From Gammaproteobacteria bacterium (GTDB taxonomy: Bacteria > Pseudomonadota > Gammaproteobacteria > GCA-001735895), in contig JANTFI010000001.1 of the NCBI GenBank assembly GCA_024763505.1, positions 8,602 through 72,601 on the forward strand: a stretch of DNA of 64,000 nucleotides, read 5' to 3'. A program made the position numbers and the translations under genes. The notes under the pieces are model-generated. The model was given only the letters and a program-made list of their open reading frames with translations, had not been told where the DNA came from and did not search any database. Shown one piece after another: positions 43,233 through 55,763 of the stretch. Each line of letters begins with the position of its first letter. Position 1 is the first letter of the stretch.

Positions 43233-44027
43233 ATGTTCCTGAGACACGCACAAAATGCGTTGACATTGTCCTGGTATTTGAGTGTCGCATTGGTTATTTA
43301 TATCGGTTGGTCAGTCCGAGAGCAACGCTATCTGTTGGCTGAATCGGGTATTGGCTATTGGCTTGGCATTATCGGCGGAGCCATGATGCTGTTGCTTCTT
43401 TATTATCCGGTTCGTAAACGAAAGCCACGCTGGAAATATTCCGGCTCGATCAAATTCTGGTTTCGCTTCCACATGTTTCTGGGAATCGCGGGTCCAGTAC
43501 TGATTATTCTCCATTCCGGCTATCGACTGGGATCACTCAATGGCACGGTCGCATTTTTCTGCATGTTGATCGTGGCTGGCAGCGGGCTGATTGGCCGCTA
43601 TCTGTACCGGCGTATTCATCATGGCTTGTATGGCGAAAAAATCCGCTTCGAAGAGCTGTATCACAAGGATCAAAGCTGGGAAGAAAAGCTCGCAGAACTG
43701 AAGAATAAATATCCCGAACCGGTGGAAAAGCTCGGTGTTATTGAATCTCAACTGGTACAACACGGAGCCGCTGCCAGCCGTTCTCTCTGGTTTTACCAGT
43801 CGATGCAGTGGCAGTTGCAGACATTGAAGCGACAAATCATTCAGCAGTTGGGAAAAAATTCCGCAGACAGCGCCGGATTTCAGCAACGAATTCAAAGCCT
43901 GAAATCGATCACCAGCCTCGGAGTCCACGAGATTCTGTTTTCATACTGGCATATCCTGCATTTTCCCTTATTCATCATGCTGCTCATCTCCGGCATTACT
44001 CATGTCGTCGTGGTGCATTTTTACTAA
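43233..44027 (+). CDS. Polytopic His-rich membrane protein, candidate b-type cytochrome / quinol-side electron-transfer subunit.
   Basis: 264 aa. About 5 TM helices with conserved-looking His pairs (FRFHMFLGIAGPVLIILHSGY, YWHILHFPLFIMLLISGITHVVVVHFY). Its stop overlaps the start of the first multiheme cytochrome. Confidence 0.45.
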   Translation: MFLRHAQNALTLSWYLSVALVIYIGWSVREQRYLLAESGIGYWLGIIGGAMMLLLLYYPVRKRKPRWKYSGSIKFWFRFHMFLGIAGPVLIILHSGYRLGSLNGTVAFFCMLIVAGSGLIGRYLYRRIHHGLYGEKIRFEELYHKDQSWEEKLAELKNKYPEPVEKLGVIESQLVQHGAAASRSLWFYQSMQWQLQTLKRQIIQQLGKNSADSAGFQQRIQSLKSITSLGVHEILFSYWHILHFPLFIMLLISGITHVVVVHFY

Positions 44028-45592
44028 TGAAAAGGTTATGGACCACATTGTTTCTGCTGGCTCTACTGGTTAGCCAATCGGCCTGGGGTATCAGTCTGGA
44101 AAACCTGTTCTCTCCGGGTGAATTGATCGACGGGCATGCCAAAATCCAGCAAGATTGCAAGCAATGCCATGTGCGCGGGCGTGATCTCACGCAAAACGAT
44201 TTGTGTCTGGATTGCCATGAAAAGGTTAGCGCCGATGTCCACAACCGCAAGGGGTTTCATGGTCGTAGCGAACAAGTGGAATCCGTACAGTGTCGATCCT
44301 GCCATACCGATCACAAGGGCAGGGATGCCGATATTGTGTGGCTGGATCAGGATCGCTTCAACCATGAAATGAGCGATTACCGGCTGATTGGCAAGCACCG
44401 GCAAGCGAAATGCGAGAGTTGCCACGAGTCAGACAAACATTATCGCGAAGCCCCCTCGGCCTGCATTGATTGCCACAAGAAAGACGACGTGCACAAAAAC
44501 AAGCTGGGTAAAAAATGCGGGTCTTGCCATAACCCGAAAGCCTGGAGCAGTGAACAATTCGATCATGACCAGACGGCATTCAAACTCCGCTTTGCCCATA
44601 AACAAGTCGCCTGCGATCTTTGCCATGTCGAAAACCGCTACAAGAAAACGCCGAAAACCTGTGTTTCCTGTCATGCCATCAAGGATGTTCACCAAAACCG
44701 TTTCGGTAATGACTGCAAAGCCTGTCACAACACTGAAAAATGGGAAAAGCCGCGCTTCGATCACGACCGCAATACGCGTTTCAAACTCGAATCCAGTCAT
44801 CGTTCGGTTGGTTGCAACGCTTGCCATGCGCGTACCCGGCAAGCCTTACCCGGAAAAAAATCCAGTCCCCGTCGCTGTATTGCCTGCCACAAGCTCGATG
44901 ATGTGCATCAAGGCGAAAACGGAAAACGCTGTGAGCAATGCCATGCCGAGGATCGCTGGTCGAAAAACAGCTTTGACCATGATCAGGACACGAAATTTAA
45001 ATTGCGCGGCGCTCATGCCAAGGCCAGTTGCGAATCCTGTCATCAGAAAGATTTACGCGGAAAGAAAACCAGCCCGGCCTGTTACAGCTGCCACCAGCAT
45101 CAAGATGCACACAAGGGCCAGGAAGGGGAATCCTGCGAAACCTGTCATAACGATAAAAGCTGGTGGTTGGAAGATGTGCGCTATGACCATGATTTAAGCG
45201 ATTTTCCGTTGCTCGGCCAGCATGCCGTGGTCGGTTGCGAAGCATGCCATTTGTCTTCCGCGTTCAAGGATGTCAAGCAAGCCTGTGTCGATTGTCATGC
45301 AGAAGATGACATCCACGATCAGACTTTGGGGCAAAAATGCCAGCAGTGCCATAACCCGAACGATTGGCTGATTTGGCAATTCGACCACAATCGAACCGAT
45401 TTCAAACTGAAAGGCGCGCATGAAAAGCTGCATTGCCGGCTTTGTCATAACCGGCCAATGGAAAATGCAGTCGAGCTCAAGCAGCAATGTATCGACTGCC
45501 ATCGTGCCGATGATGTGCACGATGGCAATTTTGGCGGCGATTGCGAGCGTTGCCATAACCAGACAGATTTTTCTGTCATTCAAATCAATTAA
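44027..45592 (+). CDS. Multiheme c-type cytochrome with 21 CxxCH motifs, built from 7 triheme (c7-like) modules.
   Basis: 521 aa. Signal peptide MKRLWTTLFLLALLVSQSAWG. 21 CxxCH motifs counted by eye. Recurring module FDHDxTxFKLxGAHxxxxCxxCH...CxxCHxxDDVHxxxxGxxCxxCH. Confidence 0.85.
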   Translation: MKRLWTTLFLLALLVSQSAWGISLENLFSPGELIDGHAKIQQDCKQCHVRGRDLTQNDLCLDCHEKVSADVHNRKGFHGRSEQVESVQCRSCHTDHKGRDADIVWLDQDRFNHEMSDYRLIGKHRQAKCESCHESDKHYREAPSACIDCHKKDDVHKNKLGKKCGSCHNPKAWSSEQFDHDQTAFKLRFAHKQVACDLCHVENRYKKTPKTCVSCHAIKDVHQNRFGNDCKACHNTEKWEKPRFDHDRNTRFKLESSHRSVGCNACHARTRQALPGKKSSPRRCIACHKLDDVHQGENGKRCEQCHAEDRWSKNSFDHDQDTKFKLRGAHAKASCESCHQKDLRGKKTSPACYSCHQHQDAHKGQEGESCETCHNDKSWWLEDVRYDHDLSDFPLLGQHAVVGCEACHLSSAFKDVKQACVDCHAEDDIHDQTLGQKCQQCHNPNDWLIWQFDHNRTDFKLKGAHEKLHCRLCHNRPMENAVELKQQCIDCHRADDVHDGNFGGDCERCHNQTDFSVIQIN

Positions 45593-45875
45593 CGGAGCAG
45601 TGGCGTCGGCTTTACATTGGGCGGATGGTCATTGAGGCAGTGGAAGGCAGGGATGCCTCGAGAACGGGAAAGGCAGTTTTTTTTGGTTATTGTGGTGCAA
45701 GCCTTGTGCGGGTTGATGCGAAAACTTCTCGCTTATTCACAACTGTACTTAGGCAATAACCCACCGGGGAATGAATCCACCAGAAAAAGATTTTACCACT
45801 GCAAGATCCCGAATTCGTTTCGACCTGAATACATTACTTCAGGCCGAACCGGTTTCAGCCACTGAGGAGACGATC

Positions 45876-48035
45876 ATGAAGAACCGCACCGAAATCCGGG
45901 TAGAGCCGCAAACCCGCATGCATTACCAGCCATTCGCGTGGTTGCTGTTGATGTTTGCACTGTTGCTTGCATGGCAAAATGCCAGCTTCGCGGCCCAGCA
46001 ACCTTTTGATCATGATGACACCCGTTTCCCGCTGGATTTTTCTCATGCGCGCGTCAGTTGTGATTCCTGCCATCTGCAAGGCGTTTTCAAGGGCACACCG
46101 GTCAATTGTTCGGGATGTCATGCCAGTGCCAGCCGCATTCAGGCCAGTAGCAAGTCGCCTTCGCATATCAATAGTTCGAATGATTGTGAATTCTGTCATC
46201 AAAGCGGCAACTGGAATGTCGTCACGCGTGTTGACCATTTTGCCGTCAGCGGCAGTTGCCAGAGTTGTCACAACGGCATCAATTCGATGGGCAAAAATCC
46301 GCAACATATCCAGAGCAGCAACCAATGTGATGATTGCCATGTCACATCGAGCTGGAGCAATGCGGTTTTTGATCATGCTGGTGTCATCGGCAGTTGCGTC
46401 ACTTGCCACAATGGCAGTATCGCCACGGGCAAGCATCCAAGCCATATCCTGTCAACCCAGAATTGTGAAGATTGTCATCGAACCATCAGTTGGAAACCGG
46501 CCAGCCGGGTCGATCATGACGCCGTCATTGGCAGTTGCAGCAGTTGTCATAACGGTGTGTTGGCAGAAGGCAAGAATGCCACCCATATTGCAACGACCGC
46601 TCAATGCGACGAGTGCCACAATACCGTGTCCTGGTCATCGGCGACCTTCAATCATGATGGTGTGACTACAGGCTGTTCGAGTTGTCACAATGGCGCTGCC
46701 GCCAAAGGCAAGCATCCACAACATATCGCTTCGACCAATGAATGCGAAGCTTGTCATGCGATCAATCGCTGGGCTCCGGCAACCCGGGTCGATCATGATG
46801 CCGTGAGCGGTAGTTGTTCCAGCTGTCATAATGGTGTGATTGCGACTGGCAAGAGCGCTGACCATTTGAATACAAGCAGTGAATGCGACAGTTGTCATAG
46901 CACGATCAACTGGAATTCGGCCAGTTTCAACCATGATGGTATTACCGATGCCTGTTTCAGTTGCCATAACGGTGTGCAGGAGACGGGTAAAACGCCGCAA
47001 CATATTTCGACCACCAATGATTGCGAACTATGCCATGCACCGTTTGGCTGGGCGCCAGCAACAAGGGTGGATCATGATGCAGTTACCGGCACTTGCTCCA
47101 GTTGTCATAACGGTGTGACTGCCATCGGAAAGAGTCCGCAGCATATTGCCACCAACAGCGAATGCGACAGTTGCCACAACACTATCAACTGGATCTCGGC
47201 CAATTTTACCCATGACGGAATCACGTCTTCCTGCTCGAGTTGTCATAACAGTGTGCAGGCGACCGGCAAGAATCCGCAGCATATAGCCTCAAGCAATGAC
47301 TGTGAACTGTGCCATACCAGCATCGGCTGGATACCGGTGACCCGGGTCGACCATGATGCGGTGAGTGGAACATGCTCGAGTTGTCACAACGGTGTCACGG
47401 CAACCGGTAAAACCGCCGCTCATGTCACGACCAGTAGCGAATGTGATAGCTGTCATACATCCACGGTAAGTTGGAGTACGGTGAATTTTGATCATGCGGG
47501 CGTAACCGGAAACTGTATCAGTTGCCACGATGGTATTACGGCCACGGGCAAGAATCCTCAGCATGTCTCTACCACTAACGAATGCGTGCTATGCCATTCG
47601 ACGGTGGGCTGGGCGCCGGTCCTCAAGGTTGATCATGATGCGGTGCTGGGATCCTGTTCGAGTTGTCATAATGGCACCGTTTCTACCGGTAAGCCGGCAG
47701 ATCACTTTGTCACTGTCAAGGAGTGTGACTATTGTCATTCCACCGTTTCCTGGCCGAGTCTGACCTTTACTCATCAGTCGGTGAATTACCCGGGTGACCA
47801 TCGCGGTTCACTCAGTTGCGTGAGCTGTCACACCGCCAACAGTGAAACCATGATCTGGCCGTTCCCGGCTTATAAGCCAGATTGCGCAGGCTGTCACGCC
47901 AGTGACTATCGACAAAACAAGCATGAAAACTTTAATAATGGCTTCTTCACGGTCAGTGAATTGAGAGACTGCACCGGTGCCTGCCACTCTTCTGCAGGGC
48001 ATCACCGGATTACTGACAGGAGTTGGGGAAATTGA
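45876..48035 (+). CDS. Multiheme c-type cytochrome with 27 CxxCH plus one CxxxCH, built from about 13 tandem paired-CXXCH repeat units.
   Basis: 719 aa. GAGGAG Shine-Dalgarno 7 nt upstream. Signal peptide. Repeat unit about 45 aa: HIxSSNxC[DE]xCH...W...[VF][DN]HDxVxGxCSSCHNGVxATGKxPQ. Confidence 0.85.
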   Translation: MKNRTEIRVEPQTRMHYQPFAWLLLMFALLLAWQNASFAAQQPFDHDDTRFPLDFSHARVSCDSCHLQGVFKGTPVNCSGCHASASRIQASSKSPSHINSSNDCEFCHQSGNWNVVTRVDHFAVSGSCQSCHNGINSMGKNPQHIQSSNQCDDCHVTSSWSNAVFDHAGVIGSCVTCHNGSIATGKHPSHILSTQNCEDCHRTISWKPASRVDHDAVIGSCSSCHNGVLAEGKNATHIATTAQCDECHNTVSWSSATFNHDGVTTGCSSCHNGAAAKGKHPQHIASTNECEACHAINRWAPATRVDHDAVSGSCSSCHNGVIATGKSADHLNTSSECDSCHSTINWNSASFNHDGITDACFSCHNGVQETGKTPQHISTTNDCELCHAPFGWAPATRVDHDAVTGTCSSCHNGVTAIGKSPQHIATNSECDSCHNTINWISANFTHDGITSSCSSCHNSVQATGKNPQHIASSNDCELCHTSIGWIPVTRVDHDAVSGTCSSCHNGVTATGKTAAHVTTSSECDSCHTSTVSWSTVNFDHAGVTGNCISCHDGITATGKNPQHVSTTNECVLCHSTVGWAPVLKVDHDAVLGSCSSCHNGTVSTGKPADHFVTVKECDYCHSTVSWPSLTFTHQSVNYPGDHRGSLSCVSCHTANSETMIWPFPAYKPDCAGCHASDYRQNKHENFNNGFFTVSELRDCTGACHSSAGHHRITDRSWGN
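46080..47720 (+). repeat. Intragenic tandem DNA repeats (about 135 bp unit, about 12 copies, diverged) encoding the paired-CXXCH modules.
   Basis: Recurrent ...gtcgatcatgatgc(g/c)gt...ggcagttgc(a/t)c(c/g)agttgtcataa(c/t)gg... segments at regular spacing through the gene. Confidence 0.7.
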
Positions 48036-48104
48036 TGCGGGCAGGCTTCGATGTTGTTGGCCGGGGTTTTCCTGCCAACCAGACCAAAAAGGATTTGAAA
48101 ACTG

Positions 48105-50234
48105 ATGATAATTAAAAAAATAGTTGCGGCACTCCTGTTGCTCGTGCTTGTCTGGTCTCCTGTTGCCATGCCAGCGGAAACTGTATTATCGGGTGTCGAA
48201 ATGGTTTTGAAAAAATCGGCCGGAACAACACATCTCAAGCAGTACACACTGATTCTGGCCTCTTATGAAAAAATGCCGGCCGGTACTGAGCTAAAAAAGT
48301 TGTCGCGTCTCGACAGTAACTGGGTTTATTTCACCAAAGTGAATGTAAAAAACCGGGTTTATTATCGCCTTGTGGTCGGAAATTATTCGACTCTGAAACA
48401 GGCTCGCAGCGTGCTTGCCGGGTTTCGCAAACAATTCAGCGGAGCCTGGATTCATAAAAGAGATACGTCAGAAATAAAACTGTTGGCTGTAAAAGTGCCG
48501 ATGCTGACCCGCCCATCGGTAACTCGGCCAGGTTCGAAAACATTGCCGGTCAAACCGGCACAAAAAGCAACGTCGTCGGTTACAAATTCCGATATGAAAA
48601 AGGAGCAAGCGCTTACCCGCGACGGGAGGCAATCCAGAAATGTTTTCGCCGAAAAACTGTTGTCGCAATCACGCCAACTGTTGCTGGACCGCAAATACGC
48701 GCAACTGGTTAAGGTCAGCAACAAGGTTATAGAAGTCGGCAATGCCGAACAAAAGCAACGGGGCATGCAATTCGCCGGACTGGCGCGAGAGCGGCAACGC
48801 AAGTTCGCTCAGGCGATTGCGATTTATAAGCGCTTTCTCGAGCAATACCCGGACAGTTCATTGGCACGCAAGATTCAATCCCGCCTGAATACCCTCAAAA
48901 CCATGAATCTTGAACCCAGAACCCGAATGGCCAGACGCAGCAAACAACGCAGTGATGATGGCTGGTCGCTGACCGGGTCCTTTTCCCAGTATTACCGTAA
49001 GAATTTCAATGACACGACCGAGAATGGAAATGAAGTGATCAATGATTCGCTACTTACTGATATCAGTCTGTACGCGCGAAATCGTACACAAAGCAGCACA
49101 ACTATCATCCGATTCGATGGAGGGCTGGTGAGTGATTTTCTGGATGATAGCAACGACAGCAACCTGAGTCGCGCTTCGCTGCGTTATACCAGCCACGATG
49201 CCGACTATGAAGTTATCGCCGGGCGCCAATCGAGAACGGCAAAAGGCGTACTCGGTCGATTCGACGGGGTGGTCTATAGTGGGCTGTCACATGAAAACTG
49301 GGATTACAGCCTGTATGCAGGCTTTCCGGTGCAATCTTCGTCCGATGGTTTCAAGTCCGCACGGCGTTTTATTGGCAGCAATCTCAGTCTGCAACCGGCG
49401 GAAAAAATGGAGCTGGATCTGTATCTGCTGTTTCAGCAAAACGAAGGCTTGACCGATCGTCAGGCGGTCGGCTCACAGCTGCAATACCGCAGTGACAAAG
49501 GGTTCCTGTTCACGATTTTTGATTATGATTTTTTCTATAAAGAGATCAATGACTTGACCGCGATTACGAATTATCGCTTCAGCTCTGTCCTGACTCTGAA
49601 TCTTACCCTTAACTACCGAAATTCGCCGACGCTTACGAGCTTGAACGCGATTCAGGGGCAGGGGGTGACTACATTCGAAGAGTTGACCCGTTTATACCCG
49701 GAGGATGAGATTTATCAGTTGGCCGCAGACCGGACCAGCAAAAGTAAAAATCTGTTTCTTAACGTCAGTTACCAAATCGATCAAGCGCACCAGCTCGATA
49801 CCAGTATTGCGGTTTCGCAAGTCGAAGAAACGGTGGCTTCGGGCGGCGTCGAAGCGGCTCCGGCCAGTGAGGATTTCAATCTATCGAGCAGCTACACCAT
49901 TAACGGTTATTTTCTGCCGGATGATTTCACCACCTTCGGGCTCAGATATTCTGACACCACGTCTTCCCACAGTCTGTCGTTTCGCTTGCGAGCACGGTTC
50001 AAGGGAAGTGAAGGATGGCGATATGATCCGAGACTCCAACTGGATTATCGCGAAAGTAAAACCAGCGGTGTTCAACAGTGGATTGTAAGGCCGAAATTCA
50101 AGGTCAAATATAAACCCAACAAGAAGACAAGCCTGGAAGCCAGTGTCGGCATCGATTATTCAAATTTTGATTTACCGGAGCTGGACGACCAACTGACGAC
50201 CAATTTCCTTATCGGTTATCTTTACCGGATATAA
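48105..50234 (+). CDS. Secreted SPOR-domain + TPR-like + C-terminal beta-barrel protein (putative outer-membrane component).
   Basis: 709 aa. Signal peptide. SPOR-like segment (VYFTKVNVKNRVYYRLVVGNYSTLKQARSVLAGFRKQFSGAWI). Helical TPR-like region. About 430-aa C-terminal region with alternating-hydrophobic, aromatic-rich beta-strand pattern ending ..IGYLYRI. Confidence 0.6.
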   Translation: MIIKKIVAALLLLVLVWSPVAMPAETVLSGVEMVLKKSAGTTHLKQYTLILASYEKMPAGTELKKLSRLDSNWVYFTKVNVKNRVYYRLVVGNYSTLKQARSVLAGFRKQFSGAWIHKRDTSEIKLLAVKVPMLTRPSVTRPGSKTLPVKPAQKATSSVTNSDMKKEQALTRDGRQSRNVFAEKLLSQSRQLLLDRKYAQLVKVSNKVIEVGNAEQKQRGMQFAGLARERQRKFAQAIAIYKRFLEQYPDSSLARKIQSRLNTLKTMNLEPRTRMARRSKQRSDDGWSLTGSFSQYYRKNFNDTTENGNEVINDSLLTDISLYARNRTQSSTTIIRFDGGLVSDFLDDSNDSNLSRASLRYTSHDADYEVIAGRQSRTAKGVLGRFDGVVYSGLSHENWDYSLYAGFPVQSSSDGFKSARRFIGSNLSLQPAEKMELDLYLLFQQNEGLTDRQAVGSQLQYRSDKGFLFTIFDYDFFYKEINDLTAITNYRFSSVLTLNLTLNYRNSPTLTSLNAIQGQGVTTFEELTRLYPEDEIYQLAADRTSKSKNLFLNVSYQIDQAHQLDTSIAVSQVEETVASGGVEAAPASEDFNLSSSYTINGYFLPDDFTTFGLRYSDTTSSHSLSFRLRARFKGSEGWRYDPRLQLDYRESKTSGVQQWIVRPKFKVKYKPNKKTSLEASVGIDYSNFDLPELDDQLTTNFLIGYLYRI

Positions 50235-50345
50235 ACGAATTAGCTGTGCCAGGCGTGCTATCTGGTGTTTTCATCGGCCTGATCTGACACCATCAAACCG
50301 GGTCATTAGAAAATACGTTTACAGGCCTCTCGATAGAAAGCTGTC

Positions 50346-51065
50346 CTATTTGCCCCGAATCTGGTTTTTCATATCCTTGTAATCGATATGGCGCACATCC
50401 TTGCCGTGCACCAGATATAACACGTATTCACAGATATTGGTGGCGTGGTCTCCAATGCGTTCGAGTGCGCGCGCGCACCAGGCTACACGCAGAGCATTCT
50501 TGATCGTGCGCGGGTCTTCCATCATGACGGTTATCAACTGGCGCATCAGCGCTTCGTATTCATTGTCGATCTTGGTGTCTTTCTTGATGGTTTTCAGTGC
50601 AGCCTGATCATCGACCCGGGCAAAGGCATCGAGCGCATTGTGCAACAACTTGCTGACCAGGTTGCCGAGATGTTCGAGCTTGGCGTAATCGGTCGAGGTC
50701 GAGCCTTCATCGATTAATTCCAGTTCGAACTGGCCCAGTTTTTCAGCCTGATCACCGATCCGTTCGAGATCGGTAATGGTTTTGATGATGGCGATAATCA
50801 GACGCAAGTCGGTGGCCGCCGGTTGACGTCGTGCCAGAATCTGCACGCACATTTCGTCGATCTTGACTTCCATCGAATTGACCACATGATCGCCTTCGGC
50901 GACTTGCCGGGCGACTTCAGAATTTGACTCCAGCAATGCCTGAATGCCGGAATTTACCTGGGTTTCTACCAGCCCGCCCATGGCCAGCACATGATTGCGG
51001 ATGTCTTCCAGTTCGCTGTCGAAGCGGCGAGAAATATGCCCGCCGATGGGTGATTCTTGATCCAT
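50346..51065 (-). CDS. phoU: Phosphate-specific transport system accessory protein PhoU.
   Basis: 239 aa, two PhoU repeats. Confidence 0.9.
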   Translation of the reverse strand: MDQESPIGGHISRRFDSELEDIRNHVLAMGGLVETQVNSGIQALLESNSEVARQVAEGDHVVNSMEVKIDEMCVQILARRQPAATDLRLIIAIIKTITDLERIGDQAEKLGQFELELIDEGSTSTDYAKLEHLGNLVSKLLHNALDAFARVDDQAALKTIKKDTKIDNEYEALMRQLITVMMEDPRTIKNALRVAWCARALERIGDHATNICEYVLYLVHGKDVRHIDYKDMKNQIRGK

Positions 51066-51080
51066 GCTTGTTCCTCTTGA

Positions 51081-51923
51081 TTATCCGAATTTGCCGGTAA
51101 TGTAATTCTCGGTCAACTGGTGACGTGGATTAGTGAAAATCTGATTGGTTTGCCCGACCTCGATCAATCGCCCGAGGTGGAAATAGGCCGTACGTTGAGA
51201 TACCCGCGCTGCCTGCTGCATCGAGTGGGTGACGATGGCGATGGTGAAGTTTTCACGTAATTCATCAATCAATTCCTCGATGGTCGCTGTGGCGATCGGG
51301 TCGAGTGCCGAGGCCGGTTCATCCATCAGGATTACTTCCGGGCTGACCGCGATAGTGCGGGCGATGCACAAGCGCTGTTGCTGGCCACCGGACAAACCGG
51401 TACCGGGGGCATCGAGGCGATCCTTGACTTCCTTGAACAGCCCCGCCTTTTGCAAACTGGTTTCAACGATTTCATCGAGTTCGGATGAATTACGCGCCAA
51501 CCCATGAATGCGTGGGCCGTAGGCGACATTATCGTAAATCGACTTGGGAAATGGATTCGGTTTCTGGAACACCATGCCGACCCGGGCGCGAAGCAACACT
51601 GGATCCATCGACTTGCCATAGATATTCTCGCCATCGAGTTTCAATTCACCTTCGACCCGGCAGATCGGTATGGTGTCGTTCATCCGGTTGAGAGAACGCA
51701 GATAAGTGGATTTTCCACAACCGGAAGGGCCGATCAGGGCGATTACTTCGTTTTCGGCGATATCCAGCGAAGCATCGAAAATCGCCTGCTTTTCGCCGTA
51801 GAACACGTTGACGTTGCGGGTGGAAAACTTGGCATTTTCAACCAGGTTTTCACCGATGGTCCCATCAAATTGAATATCCTGATGCGCATCGATAACCGGT
51901 GCTGTTTCATGTAATGTTGTCAT
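51081..51923 (-). CDS. pstB: Phosphate ABC transporter ATP-binding protein PstB.
   Basis: 280 aa. Walker [18 protein letters not shown], Walker B ILMDEP. Confidence 0.92.
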
Positions 51924-51983
51924 AAGACTGCTTTGAATCGTTAAAATTGAATAGCCGAAAAACGTTTATTGCTGCAAAACACG

Positions 51984-53249
51984 TTACCAGCGGCGCTCAA
52001 ACTGCTTGCGTAAATAAATGGCGATCGCATTCATGGTGACCAGAAATGCCAGCAATACCAGAATCGCGGCGGCCGTCAGCGCGGTAAAAGCTCGTTCTGG
52101 ACTGTCAGCCCAGAGATAGATTTGTACCGGCAATACGGTCGCCGAATCGAGTATGCCACCGGGCACATCGACGATAAAGGCGACCATGCCGATCATCAGC
52201 AACGGGGCGGTTTCACCGAGCGCCTGCGCCATACCGATAATCGCACCGGTGAGAATGCCAGGCATGGCCAGCGGCAGTACATGGTGAAATACGGTTTGCA
52301 TGTGCGAAGCGCCCAGTCCAAGCGCAGCTTCCTTGATCGAGGGTGGAACCGATTTAATTGCGGCTCGTGCCGAGATGATGATGGTAGGCAGGGTCATCAA
52401 CGACAAGACGATACCACCGACCAGCGGCGCGGAGCGAGGCATACCAAAAAAATTGATGAACACGGCCAGACCGAGCAAGCCAAAAACAATGGATGGAACT
52501 GCGGCCAGATTATTGATATTGACTTCGATAATATCGGTAAGCTTGTTTTTCGGTGCGAATTCTTCCAGATACACCGCTGCGCCGATACCGATTGGCAACG
52601 AAATCACCAGTGTGACCAACAGGGTCCAGAACGACCCGACCAATGCCCCCCGGATGCCGGCCTGTTCCGGTTCACGCGAATCACTGTTTTGAAAAAAGGT
52701 ATCGTTGAACCGGGTACGAATCTTGCCCTGATCCATCAATTGCTGAATCATTTCGGCCTGTTTCGGCTTGATCCGGCTGGTAGATTTTTTCAATTTATAA
52801 AAGGTGTCAACATCGTCATCGGCGGTCACCCACAAGCTGATCTTGCCTTGCTGGATCAGTTCCGGCTCGCTCAGAATCAAGTCTCGCAATTGATATTCGG
52901 CCCCGCTTGAGATCAGCCGATAGAGCAATTTCTTGTCTTTGCGTTTTTTGACGTCTGGAAAGACTTCACGCAAGGATTTTTTCAGTACGCCGCCAAAGTC
53001 GACGGTACGTAAACTTTCGGGATCAATACGAGTGTCTGGCTGCAACCCCAGGGTTTCCCAATCGATCGGAACCTGCAACTGAATCTCGGTTTTTTGGAAC
53101 GCCGGTAGTGCTTTTAACGTGATATCCAGCAACAAGGTAGCGAGAAACACAAAGCCGATCCACACGGCAATCTTGCCATACCATTGAAAGCGCTTTTCAC
53201 GTGCATAGCGTTTTTTCAGGCTCAGTTTGACCTGTTCGGTATTATTCAT
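51984..53249 (-). CDS. pstA: Phosphate ABC transporter permease PstA.
   Basis: Permease with EAA-like loop. Start taken at MNNTEQVKL (8-nt overlap with the pstC stop). The track ORF extends to 53291. Confidence 0.85.
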   Translation of the reverse strand: MNNTEQVKLSLKKRYAREKRFQWYGKIAVWIGFVFLATLLLDITLKALPAFQKTEIQLQVPIDWETLGLQPDTRIDPESLRTVDFGGVLKKSLREVFPDVKKRKDKKLLYRLISSGAEYQLRDLILSEPELIQQGKISLWVTADDDVDTFYKLKKSTSRIKPKQAEMIQQLMDQGKIRTRFNDTFFQNSDSREPEQAGIRGALVGSFWTLLVTLVISLPIGIGAAVYLEEFAPKNKLTDIIEVNINNLAAVPSIVFGLLGLAVFINFFGMPRSAPLVGGIVLSLMTLPTIIISARAAIKSVPPSIKEAALGLGASHMQTVFHHVLPLAMPGILTGAIIGMAQALGETAPLLMIGMVAFIVDVPGGILDSATVLPVQIYLWADSPERAFTALTAAAILVLLAFLVTMNAIAIYLRKQFERRW

Positions 53250-54612
53250 ATTGCTCTCGATATTTTCTGACGATGTGCAGGGCGAAGACATTCAATACCA
53301 GCGTGGTGACGAACAGCATCAACCCCAAAGCGAAGGCGGCCAGTGTTTTCGGGCTATCGAACTCCTGATCACCGGTCAGCAATGTGACGATTTGGACGGT
53401 TACCGTGGTGACCGCTTCCAGCGGGTTTGCGGTCAGGTTGGCCGACAGCCCGGCGGCCATCACTACAATCATGGTTTCACCAATGGCGCGGGACGCTGCC
53501 AGCAAAACTCCGCCGACTATGCCGGGCAGGGCGGCTGGAATAATTACCTGCTTGATCGTTTCCGATCGGGTTGCGCCGAGGCCCAGTGAGCCATCTCGCA
53601 TCGCTTGAGGCACGGCGGTGATGACATCGTCTGAGAGTGAGGAAACGAACGGAATAATCATTACGCCCATCACCACGCCAGCCGCCAGTGCGCTTTCGGA
53701 AGAGACATCAAGCCCGATAGACTGCCCCAGGTCTCGGATGAAGGGTGCGACGGTCAGGGCGGCAAAAAAGCCATACACCACGGTTGGGATACCGGCCAGA
53801 ATTTCCAGCGCGGGTTTGGCGGTTGCGCGAAACCGCTGGCTGGCATATTCCGACAGGTAAATGGCAGAGAACAGTCCCACCGGTACCGCGATCAGCAGTG
53901 CGATGGCTGAAATCAGCAGCGTACCGAAAAATAGTGGAACCGCACCGAAGGCACCGGAAGACCCGGCCTGGTCGGCGCGGATTGCGATTTGCGGGCTCCA
54001 TTTGGTGCCAAACACAAAATCGAAAAAATTGACTGACTGGAAGAAACGCAATGATTCGAACAATACCGACAGCACGATGCCGATGGTGGTGACGATCGCA
54101 ACGCCTGAGCAAATAAACAGTGCGACTCTGATGACGGTTTCGGTATGGCTGCGTGCTTGTGTCCTGAGCAGAGAATTGGTCATAGCATAGACAATGCCGG
54201 AAAGACCCAGCAACACCACCAGTACGGTCAGGATCCAGTTACTTTCCTGTTGCAATTGCTGGTAGCGATCGACCGCGCGAATCAACACCGGATCATCGCG
54301 GGTATCATTATTTTGAATCGCCAGCAGGATATCGTTCATGTACAGGTCGACCGAGGCATTTGACTGGGTCAACACCGATTGCGGCAGCACCTCGCGGATT
54401 TGTTCATGAATATACACGGGTTTGAGAGCGGACCAGGCGACTAACAGGATCAGCGCCGGTAATCCACTCCAGATGGCGGTGTAATAGCCATAGTGTTTGG
54501 GTAAAGCCTTCAGGCGCCCGTTTTTCTGAGCACGGGCTGCACGGAATCTGCCCGCAAGAAAGGCTAAAATCGATAAGCCGATTATCAGCAGAATTAGAAC
54601 AGATGCAGTCAT
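53242..54612 (-). CDS. pstC: Phosphate ABC transporter permease PstC (long form).
   Basis: 456 aa polytopic permease upstream of pstA. Confidence 0.88.
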   Translation of the reverse strand: MTASVLILLIIGLSILAFLAGRFRAARAQKNGRLKALPKHYGYYTAIWSGLPALILLVAWSALKPVYIHEQIREVLPQSVLTQSNASVDLYMNDILLAIQNNDTRDDPVLIRAVDRYQQLQQESNWILTVLVVLLGLSGIVYAMTNSLLRTQARSHTETVIRVALFICSGVAIVTTIGIVLSVLFESLRFFQSVNFFDFVFGTKWSPQIAIRADQAGSSGAFGAVPLFFGTLLISAIALLIAVPVGLFSAIYLSEYASQRFRATAKPALEILAGIPTVVYGFFAALTVAPFIRDLGQSIGLDVSSESALAAGVVMGVMIIPFVSSLSDDVITAVPQAMRDGSLGLGATRSETIKQVIIPAALPGIVGGVLLAASRAIGETMIVVMAAGLSANLTANPLEAVTTVTVQIVTLLTGDQEFDSPKTLAAFALGLMLFVTTLVLNVFALHIVRKYREQYE

Positions 54613-54722
54613 CAGGCGTGGTCAGGTAATGTGAAAAGGATGGGATTATACACAGCTTCAAGCAGGCACAAAAACAAATGCCCGCAATCGTGCGGGCACT
54701 TATAAGGTCATGACTATCCAGC

Positions 54723-55763
54723 TTACATTTTCAGCTTTTCAGAGTTTTTGACGCGCTTGCGCATAGCGGCACGGTCGGCCTTAGACAGTGGAATCAATCC
54801 CTTGTCGATCAGGTAACCTTCGTCACCGAAAGCGGCTTCACTGGTGAATTCGACGAGGTAATCCTGCATACCTGGGATGGCTTTTTTATGCGCATTCTTG
54901 ACATAAAAGAACAGTGGGCGAGAGATCGGGTAAGAACCATCGGCAATGGTTTCGAACTCAGGCGCTTCACCTTCCACAATGGAACCCTGTACATAGTCGT
55001 CATTCTGTTCGAGGAAAGAGAAACCGAAGATACCCATAGCTTTCGGGTTGCTTTCGAGCTTCTGCACGATCAGATTGTCGTTTTCACCGGCTTCAATATA
55101 CGCACCGTCTTCACGAACCGTGTGGCAGATCGACTTGTACTTCTTTTTGTCTTTCTTTTTCATCGCCTTGATCCAGTCAACCTTCTTGCAACCACCTTCC
55201 ATTGCGAGTTCGGCAAAAGCATCCCGAGTGCCGGAAGTCGGTGGCGGCCCAAGCACTTCAATCTTGTAATTGGGCAGAGACGGGTTCACCTGATTCCAGG
55301 TCTGGTAAGGGTTTTCAATCAACTTGTGACCACCTTTCGGATCCGGAACCTGTTTGGCCAGTGCCAGAAACATATCCTTGCGAGAGAGTTTGAATTGCGG
55401 GGCTTTTTTGGAGTTTGCAAAAGCGATTCCATCATAGCCGATCTGTATTTCAGTAATATCGGTAACGCCGTTTTTCATGCATTTTTTGTATTCAGAAGAC
55501 TTGATCGCCCGCGAGGCATTGGTGATATCCGGCGTATTCAGGCCTGCACCGGCACAGAACAGCTTCATGCCACCGCCGGAACCGGTGGATTCGATTTTGG
55601 GGGTTTTATGACCGCTTTTCTTGCCGAATTTTTCAGCTACTACAGTCGCAAAAGGATAAACCGTGGAAGAACCCACAATATTAATGGTGTCACGACCGGC
55701 GGCTTGTGCCTGTAGTGAAATCAAACTGCAACTGATCGCAGTAGCGAGAACCAGGTGTTTCAT
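54723..55763 (-). CDS. pstS: Phosphate-binding periplasmic protein PstS.
   Basis: 346 aa. Signal peptide MKHLVLATAISCSLISLQAQA. PBP fold motifs (GSSTVYPF, GSGGG). Confidence 0.9.
   Translation of the reverse strand: MKHLVLATAISCSLISLQAQAAGRDTINIVGSSTVYPFATVVAEKFGKKSGHKTPKIESTGSGGGMKLFCAGAGLNTPDITNASRAIKSSEYKKCMKNGVTDITEIQIGYDGIAFANSKKAPQFKLSRKDMFLALAKQVPDPKGGHKLIENPYQTWNQVNPSLPNYKIEVLGPPPTSGTRDAFAELAMEGGCKKVDWIKAMKKKDKKKYKSICHTVREDGAYIEAGENDNLIVQKLESNPKAMGIFGFSFLEQNDDYVQGSIVEGEAPEFETIADGSYPISRPLFFYVKNAHKKAIPGMQDYLVEFTSEAAFGDEGYLIDKGLIPLSKADRAAMRKRVKNSEKLKM

Follow-up and report, generated by a model that had tools for sequence, protein, structure and literature searches.

The window analyzed here, a stretch of 64,000 nucleotides (nt) of contig JANTFI010000001.1 from an uncultured gammaproteobacterium, encodes a multihaem c-type cytochrome that is very probably the outer, length-variable subunit of a porin-cytochrome cluster of the PCC3 type. 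A preceding sequence-only reading of the same DNA had described a 28-haem cytochrome made of doubled-CXXCH units, and in this it was right: 27 CXXCH motifs and one CX3CH motif lie within a single open reading frame (ORF). Judged by its sequence, the protein belongs to a known, bioinformatically defined kind, and what is new is one more member, with the nearest orthologue 69% identical. The cytochrome gene is the third of four co-directional genes, which encode, in this order, an inner-membrane protein, a 21-haem cytochrome, the 28-haem cytochrome, and a protein that combines SPOR, TPR and β-barrel regions:

43233..44027, forward strand: inner-membrane protein of 264 amino acids (aa), putatively of the di-haem-b PCC3 type, from its motifs
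44027..45592, forward strand: upstream 'periplasmic'-type cytochrome, 521 aa, 21 CXXCH by motif count
45876..48035, forward strand: 28-haem cytochrome gene, single intact ORF of 719 aa, very probably the outer variable PCC3-type cytochrome
48105..50234, forward strand: outer-membrane protein, 709 aa, SPOR, TPR and β-barrel, from Pfam, AlphaFold2 and Foldseek

A probable PCC3-type porin-cytochrome cluster

As defined by He et al. 2017 (PMC5566968), PCC3 includes an inner-membrane protein of about 300 aa with five transmembrane (TM) helices, an SGXXG motif on TM4 and WX3HX13H motifs on TM3 and TM5, which is proposed to hold two b haems; a periplasmic cytochrome with a median of 21 haems; an extracellular cytochrome made up of repeats, with much T, S, A and G and unusually few aa per haem; and an adjacent gene for an outer-membrane β-barrel (porin). 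The founding clusters are those of Sideroxydans lithotrophicus ES-1 and Leptothrix cholodnii SP-6. In ES-1, the inner-membrane protein, the periplasmic cytochrome, the extracellular cytochrome and the porin are encoded by Slit_1446-1449 (PMC11429942). The window contains the same four components in the identical order, with the inner-membrane motifs, the adjacent gene for a 21-haem periplasmic partner, an outer cytochrome composed of repeats, in which S, T, A and G abound and each haem takes about 25 aa, and an adjacent predicted barrel.

The inner-membrane protein shows five hydrophobic regions in a crude hydropathy scan and carries WFRFH-x13-H (aa 76), SGLIG (aa 117) and WHILH-x13-H (aa 239), that is, the SGXXG motif and both WX3HX13H motifs; W76, H80, H94, S117, G118, G121, W239, H243 and H257 are invariant in 29 homologues. 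The 21-haem cytochrome follows a three-haem rhythm, with spacings of approximately 16-18, 18 and 32. The AlphaFold2 model of the outer-membrane protein (mean pLDDT 87.7) consists of a signal peptide, a SPOR domain (aa ~26-130), a disordered linker, TPR-like helices (aa 175-266) and a barrel (aa 287-708), with SPOR and TPR also recovered as Pfam matches, and Foldseek finds the model to resemble ushers and porins (E 1e-10 to 1e-8). By our own count on the model, the barrel has about 22 strands, compared with 26 in the barrel of MtrB. The cluster differs from the PCC3 clusters described before in its host, an uncultured gammaproteobacterium, in the N-terminal SPOR and TPR regions of the barrel protein, and in the Fe-S flavoprotein and ankyrin/Sel1 protein that are conserved beside it.

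Comparison with other multihaem systems

The MtrCAB and MtoAB conduits of Shewanella and Sideroxydans (PDB 6R2Q) follow the same logic, the pairing of a haem-chain protein with an outer-membrane β-barrel, and MtrA provided the only match, a marginal one (6r2q_A, E 0.003), in a search of PDB sequences with the cytochrome. Membership in the DmsE/MtrA decahaem family was nevertheless rejected (TIGR03508, 97.1 bits against a cut-off of 192.2), as was membership in the OmcA/MtrC lipoprotein family (TIGR03507, 21.3 bits against 209.3), the lipoprotein signal of MtrC being missing from this cytochrome, whose signal region contains no Cys. The present system differs further from MtrCAB in having 28 haems rather than 10 and a partner of the di-haem-b type in the inner membrane rather than the tetrahaem CymA. 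Scores for the NrfH and HmcA families also fell under their curated cut-offs.

The c7-type polymers of Geobacter (the dodecahaem GSU1996, GSU0592 and GSU2210) are likewise tandem arrays of short bis-His modules of the c7/c3 type, whereas the module here comprises two or four haems, not three, in line with the rejection of the trihaem 'nanowire_3heme' domain TIGR04257 (31.1 bits, cut-off 40); it is the neighbouring 21-haem gene, unlike the 28-haem one, that has a three-haem period. A role in long-range electron transfer along stacked haems, as proposed here, is shared with the OmcS, OmcZ and OmcE filaments, although filament length there comes from the polymerization of subunits with 4-8 haems, and here from the internal repeats of one polypeptide; none of the three was matched in the PDB sequence search. 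Among family profiles, the best match is Pfam Cytochrome_C7 (PF14522), with 113.1 bits over eight stretches (cut-off 24.8), followed by Cytochrom_c3_2 (PF14537), with 100.7 bits (cut-off 25). The paired-CXXCH family that the sequence-only reading had proposed as a check gives a weak match: the 41-residue model Paired_CXXCH_1 (PF09699) scores 31.6 bits over the whole protein (cut-off 20.6), but no single stretch passes by itself.

Layout of the cytochrome

The ATG of the cytochrome gene is preceded, 6 nt to the 5' side, by a Shine-Dalgarno sequence, GAGGAG, and the protein is divided into a signal peptide, two caps and a long array between them:

45876..45992, forward strand: putative Sec signal peptide (signal peptidase I), aa 1-39, ending in …FAWLLLMFALLLAWQNASFA ahead of AQQ, from the translation read by eye
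45993..46163, forward strand: N-terminal cap, haems 1-2 (CDSCH at aa 62 and CSGCH at aa 78, spaced by 16 aa)
46164..47840, forward strand: repeat array of 12 two-haem units, haems 3-26, aa 97-655, from unit alignment
46768..47284, forward strand: best-conserved section of the array, the sole Tandem Repeats Finder call (period 279, 1.9 copies, 75% matches)
47841..48035, forward strand: C-terminal cap, with haem 27 (CAGCH at aa 670), the CX3CH haem 28 and the stop codon
47970..47987, forward strand: CX3CH site CTGACH, haem 28, aa 699-704

The signal cleavage site was placed by us from the A-x-A rule, not by a predictor; the AlphaFold model of the cytochrome has a helix at aa 20-35, within the predicted signal peptide, and inspection of the translation finds no lipobox Cys in the signal region. 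All 56 Cys of the protein fall within its 28 haem motifs, a density of one haem per 25.7 aa, and the distances from one CXXCH to the next are 16, 26, twenty-two times 23 or 24, 31 and 22 aa. Ser accounts for 13% of the residues, Thr for 9%, Ala for 8% and Gly for 7%, together 37%. The pattern of the N-terminal cap, FDH…GF.LDG.H….C.SCH..G.F.GTP..C..CH, recurs in orthologues with 16 to 43 haems. At the other end, the CTGACH motif that had drawn attention as unusual is real: C699, C703 and H704 are each at least 90% conserved among 60 aligned homologues, and CTGACH, CSGACH, CAGACH and CAGSCH all occur in orthologues. Because the Cys and His residues are conserved across homologues, the CX3CH site is, on the aligned sequences, a family trait and not a sequence error.

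Of the 33 His outside the motifs, 26 show conservation of 80% or more and a further three of 63-70%, which amounts to roughly one additional conserved His per haem, and the alignment of homologues contains no conserved Met other than the initiator. This apparent ligand pattern, a surplus of His and no Met, agrees with bis-His haems that transfer electrons and not with a catalytic site; scans with Pfam and NCBIfam profiles found no catalytic domain in the cytochrome. Many long antisense or out-of-frame ORFs of 70-236 aa lie inside the gene, on both strands of window positions 45855-47801. As genes, these internal ORFs (45855-46445, minus strand, and 45955-46665, plus strand, among others) were rejected, being most likely by-products of the biased periodic composition.

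Architecture and age of the repeats

The sequence-only reading counted about 13 units, and with the divergent pair of haems at the N-terminus added to the 12 units of the array this number stands, as does its consensus, H-I-x-S-S-N-x-C-x-x-C-H ... W ... [VF]-[DN]-H-D ... C-S-S-C-H-N-G-V-x-A-T-G-K-x-P-Q, which fits all 12 units; the last of these is degenerate and carries an 8-aa insertion. What that reading missed, while correctly perceiving periodicity in the DNA, is the alternation of two unit types and hence the actual period. With units delimited at the His seven residues ahead of each second motif, type A is 47 aa long and contains W-x-P-x-x-R-V-D-H-D-A-V, whereas type B is 46 aa long and contains W-x-S-x-x-F-x-H-D-G-[VI], so that the array consists of six A+B super-units of 93 aa, 279 nt and four haems each. 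Comparison of the gene and the protein with themselves yields peaks at exactly these lags, 279 nt and 93 aa; for the DNA, identity at the peak reaches 0.58 within the array against a background of 0.27 +/- 0.025 at in-frame lags.

Of the two DNA words reported as recurring, exact copies are few, with GTCGATCATGATGC present once and AGTTGTCATAACGG twice in the gene, but when up to two mismatches are allowed, the first word occurs five times, at spacings of 279, 279, 279 and 282 nt, and the second nine times; taken together, their near-matches are spaced by 279 nt or by 138/141 nt, and for neither word were the observed counts reached in any of 100 shuffles.

The copies have nonetheless drifted far apart. 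Exact direct repeats within the gene reach 19 nt at most, every k-mer of at least 20 nt is unique, units of like type are 52-74% identical in DNA and 30-54% at third codon positions, and pairs of super-units are 57-73% identical, with third-position identity of 0.40-0.52, near saturation. The low identity at third positions implies, therefore, that the DNA periodicity is mostly a shadow of amino-acid conservation and not of recent duplication. By this measure, the copies of the array are old, diverged duplicates that have been neither freshly amplified nor homogenized. The array probably originated when a 279-nt block in the middle of the gene was duplicated in tandem, and since its copies are old and diverged, the gene is likely to be stable over short time scales, even though copy number drifts between species.

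Relatives and the evolution of copy number

Relatives of the cytochrome are numerous. A word-indexed search retrieved more than 2372 proteins at E <= 1e-10, with a modal haem count of 36 in the best 120, and a HMMER search of 1.84 billion representatives yielded 738 clusters at E <= 1e-30. Among the best 150 HMMER matches, 140 were newly retrieved, with a median of 32 CXXCH; 88 of these have at least 28, and three have 120-131. The largest relatives, P0367, P0364 and P0487, contain 131, 129 and 120 CXXCH, respectively, in 3274-3949 aa.

For the gene cluster as a whole, alignment of the inner-membrane protein against species-representative genomes indicates that at least 578 loci exist, of which 80 were fetched. 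All 80 come from metagenome-assembled genomes, mostly of Gammaproteobacteria with a few Alphaproteobacteria, and include Ca. Thiodiazotropha, Thiogranum, Woeseiaceae and Steroidobacteraceae; the synteny of the cluster is kept in about 80 genomes. Sixty loci run unbroken from the gene for the inner-membrane protein through that for the porin, and in these the haems were counted. In 58 of them the first cytochrome carries 21 haems, whereas the second ranges from 5 to 68, with a median of 24, and reaches 41-68 in Ca. Thiodiazotropha. Even among loci where the inner-membrane protein is more than 60% identical, the second cytochrome has 9, 14, 24 or 48 haems. Variation of haem number in PCC3 was already known, from 10 to 35 in Gallionellaceae and up to 85 elsewhere (PMC5566968; PMC9900912). 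The suggestion that an array of this size is unusual thus finds no support, and 28 haems appears to be an ordinary size for the family. The expectation that copy number differs between related genomes, conversely, was borne out, with 16 haem sites in same-capped relatives P0026, P0031, P0034 and P0110, 22 in P0113, 26 in P0015 and 43 in P0002.

The steps in which the array changes can be discerned in the nearest orthologous locus (L006/L007, GCA_026993695.1), which is fully syntenic and encodes an inner-membrane protein 77% identical to that of the window. Its cytochrome, of 622 aa and 24 sites, is the orthologue 69% identical in aa to that of the window, and the alignment contains one clean gap of 93 aa, which equals one A+B super-unit. 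The same period prevails elsewhere: of 15 orthologues tested, 11 have their strongest peak at a lag of 279 nt. In a tree of units from three species, the first three and the last three units are orthologous by position, whereas the central ones cluster with their own type and in part with their own species (R_u4 and R_u6, for instance, are 85% identical). Because the end units are positional orthologues and the central units turn over, the array evidently gains and loses units at its centre. The super-unit that the window gene has in excess of L006 does not seem to be a fresh copy, because its best identity to a paralogue, 72%, is below the 77-80% of orthologous units.

Some orthologues do contain long exact repeats, of 279 nt in a member of Steroidobacteraceae (L056, 12247-15156) and of 41-53 nt in L006 (51 nt), L030, L041, L051 and L077. 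Apparently, therefore, some lineages, such as that of L056, are actively expanding their arrays, and the window gene is not.

Proposed mechanism and cellular location

After Sec export and haem attachment, the cytochrome would fold as an elongated chain of tightly packed haems, all of them presumably low-spin and bis-His in one continuous chain, by analogy with c3/c7-type cytochromes, MtrA and GSU1996. At about 0.8-1 nm per haem, an estimate from known haem wires, the chain would span some 22-28 nm. The fixed 21-haem protein would bridge the constant distance from the inner membrane to the barrel, and the 28-haem chain would extend the conduit formed by the inner-membrane protein and the 21-haem protein through or beyond the outer-membrane barrel, its length free to vary, carrying electrons between the cell and a donor or acceptor outside it. 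An invariant 21-haem partner next to a subunit of 5-68 haems fits a system in which one subunit is bound by the width of the periplasm and the other is not. Gene clusters of this kind may be pictured as envelope-spanning 'electron wires'.

A broader and more tentative scenario takes in two genes that are transcribed divergently from the cluster or adjoin it on that side:

41794..43113, reverse strand: Fe-S flavoprotein anchored in the membrane, two [4Fe-4S] clusters plus an FAD/NAD(P)-binding domain (Pyr_redox_3/YpdA-like), from Pfam, NCBIfam and sequence
39782..41797, reverse strand: Sel1 and ankyrin-repeat protein, 671 aa, with an N-terminal signal-like hydrophobic segment, from Pfam and sequence

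As in the window, the Fe-S flavoprotein gene lies next to the gene for the inner-membrane protein and is transcribed divergently from it in 67 of the 85 related loci; 10 others have it at another place within 10 kb. The ankyrin/Sel1 gene adjoins it in 60 loci. No component is better conserved than the flavoprotein, whose median identity across related loci is 57%; the inner-membrane protein, at 41%, and the porin, at 29%, fall behind it, as do all core PCC3 proteins. In their treatment of PCC3, He et al. 2017 (PMC5566968) and Hoover et al. 2023 (PMC9900912) mention neither gene. Taken with the ferric-reductase-like His motifs in the inner-membrane protein, this partner points to a possible split NOX/FRE-like chain that would run from cytoplasmic NAD(P)H to the outside. 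It is conceivable, though we lean against it, that the PCC3-type locus is a six-gene module in which electrons would enter from NAD(P)H through FAD and two [4Fe-4S] clusters into the di-haem-b protein, bypassing the quinone pool, and then pass along a 21-haem 'ruler' to a wire of free length. Under this scenario, the outer wire would evolve in steps of two to four haems, within the observed range of 5-68, tuned to the reach that the cell needs; the ankyrin/Sel1 protein, if periplasmic, would serve as a scaffold or assembly factor; and a contig break within the array, described below, could mirror true length heterogeneity in the population.

The reading of the gene as the outer cytochrome of a PCC3 has points against it. 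The assignment was made by comparing motifs, gene order and haem counts with the published description; PCC3 was still 'functionally unverified' in 2025, no cluster of this type having been tested by experiment (bioRxiv 10.1101/2025.02.27.639646); the cytochrome has no lipobox; and orthologues P0015 and P0113 bear an N-terminal SPOR domain (24.7 and 22.7 bits, cut-off 21), which places at least that end in the periplasm. The last two observations would agree with a cytochrome that stays inside, as a second periplasmic wire or an electron 'capacitor' near the peptidoglycan, such that contact with the outside is left to the barrel alone, through which one end of the cytochrome might pass. The capacitor idea has been raised by Hoover et al. 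(PMC9900912), and in the window the barrel protein also bears SPOR and TPR regions on its periplasmic side. We regard a periplasmic location as a real but much less likely alternative, given that the haem count of this subunit varies so widely next to a strictly constant 21-haem partner, that its gene always adjoins the barrel gene, and that an extracellular site was predicted for the variable cytochrome by He et al. 2017 (PMC5566968).

Stability of the array and integrity of the assembly

Near-identical DNA was found in a single source, the Logan assembly of SRR19843167, which is collinear with the window and 99.85% identical to it. Contig L090 matches window positions 39230-47230 at 99.84% and contig L091 positions 47294-51240 at 99.87%, both gap-free and with zero mismatches and zero indels within the covered parts of the cytochrome gene. 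One short piece falls between them:

47231..47293, forward strand: Logan contig break, 63 nt uncovered, within the best-conserved part of the array, from the L090/L091 alignment

No repeated 20-mer is present at the break, where the uncovered sequence agrees with its closest 63-mer elsewhere in the gene at 49 of 63 positions; the cause may be either a variant in the population or low coverage. A scan of JGI metagenomes found nothing above 51% identity. In species-representative genomes, the best identity to the inner-membrane protein is 68%, the window's own species not being among them, and no contig is on record for P0121, an inner-membrane protein 100% identical to that of the window.

These data bear on the claim that the array is recombinationally unstable and phase-variable, in other words, a contingency locus where tandem DNA repeats often recombine or slip and thereby switch the length of the wire or turn the gene on and off. 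For the window gene, this is very improbable. The differences in copy number among related genomes, the long exact repeats of L056 and the other orthologues listed above, and the break of a short-read assembly within the array of a near-identical population would all be compatible with such a locus. However, repeat-mediated contingency relies on near-identical repeats, whereas here the best pair of two-haem units is 74% identical and the best pair of 279-nt super-units 73%, and a longest exact repeat of 19 nt, with super-units 57-73% identical, offers too little for efficient RecA-dependent exchange or slippage. Moreover, all unit lengths are multiples of 3 nt, so that a change of copy number would alter the length of the protein and not switch its expression; the super-unit in excess of L006 is not a recent copy; and the second assembly shows neither indel nor mismatch in the parts of the gene that it covers.

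Equally improbable is that the copy number is an artefact of assembly, through collapse or expansion of the array: the source is apparently a metagenome-assembled contig (for the neighbours, an 88-kb NCBI contig is recorded), 63 nt of the array are uncovered in the Logan assembly, and the 28-haem protein is missing from a large protein collection that includes three of its neighbours, but the gene provides no recurring k-mer of 20 nt or more as a substrate for de Bruijn collapse, the two Logan contigs agree gap-free with the window up to the break from either side, and the nearest orthologue has a like architecture that differs by exactly one in-frame super-unit. Because all k-mers of at least 20 nt are unique and the frame and the ligand Cys and His residues of each unit are intact, collapse of the array in the window assembly appears unlikely, and the warning that the gene is prone to it is not supported, although the second assembly is indeed fragmented at that place.

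The absence just mentioned refers to an exact look-up, with both start codons, in a collection of 15 billion proteins, where the three flanking proteins are present. Similarly, the listed matches of the homology search do not include the 622-aa orthologue of L006, for which there is no Pfam record either. Haem proteins with many repeats may be too sparsely represented in protein resources, or their genes may go uncalled.

Genomic surroundings

The spacer between the two cytochrome genes, 45593-45875, consists of 283 nt of non-coding DNA and holds a T8 run. In L006 and L009, a spacer of like length is called as an 84-aa ORF, and in most other loci the two cytochrome genes abut or overlap. As a regulatory element, the spacer was rejected: there is no conservation with L006 or L009 and no Rfam match, and promoter- and terminator-like sites occur in it at chance level.

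The flanks, 37448-39772 on the forward strand and 50346-55763 on the reverse strand, encode a FabK/nitronate-monooxygenase-like protein, an ArsM-like methyltransferase and the pstSCAB-phoU phosphate-uptake operon; the ankyrin gene of L009 also has an ArsM-like methyltransferase gene as its neighbour. On the upstream side, a few kb from the cluster (33727-36489, reverse strand), a protein of 920 aa is encoded in which a Ser/Thr protein kinase of eukaryotic type is joined to a long TPR array, and farther out flgI, malic enzyme and purL point to an ordinary chromosomal setting.

Implications

Taken alone, one more gene of this kind adds little, but the comparison that it prompted yields constraints that can be tested. 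PCC3 is widespread, with relatives of the inner-membrane protein in at least 578 species-representative genomes, and its hosts include Ca. Thiodiazotropha and other chemosynthetic symbionts, along with iron oxidizers and gammaproteobacteria of sediments. For the annotation of such genes, the lesson is that periodic DNA can be a by-product of protein repeats and need not mean instability. The conserved Fe-S flavoprotein partner hints at a point where electrons enter or exit the chain. The constraints on structure and function that the family offers are a subunit fixed at 21 haems, another that varies 13-fold, and conserved end caps, and, as to how the variable subunit changes, a four-haem block of 93 aa is the period in most orthologues tested, and the sole clean insertion or deletion seen is exactly one such block.

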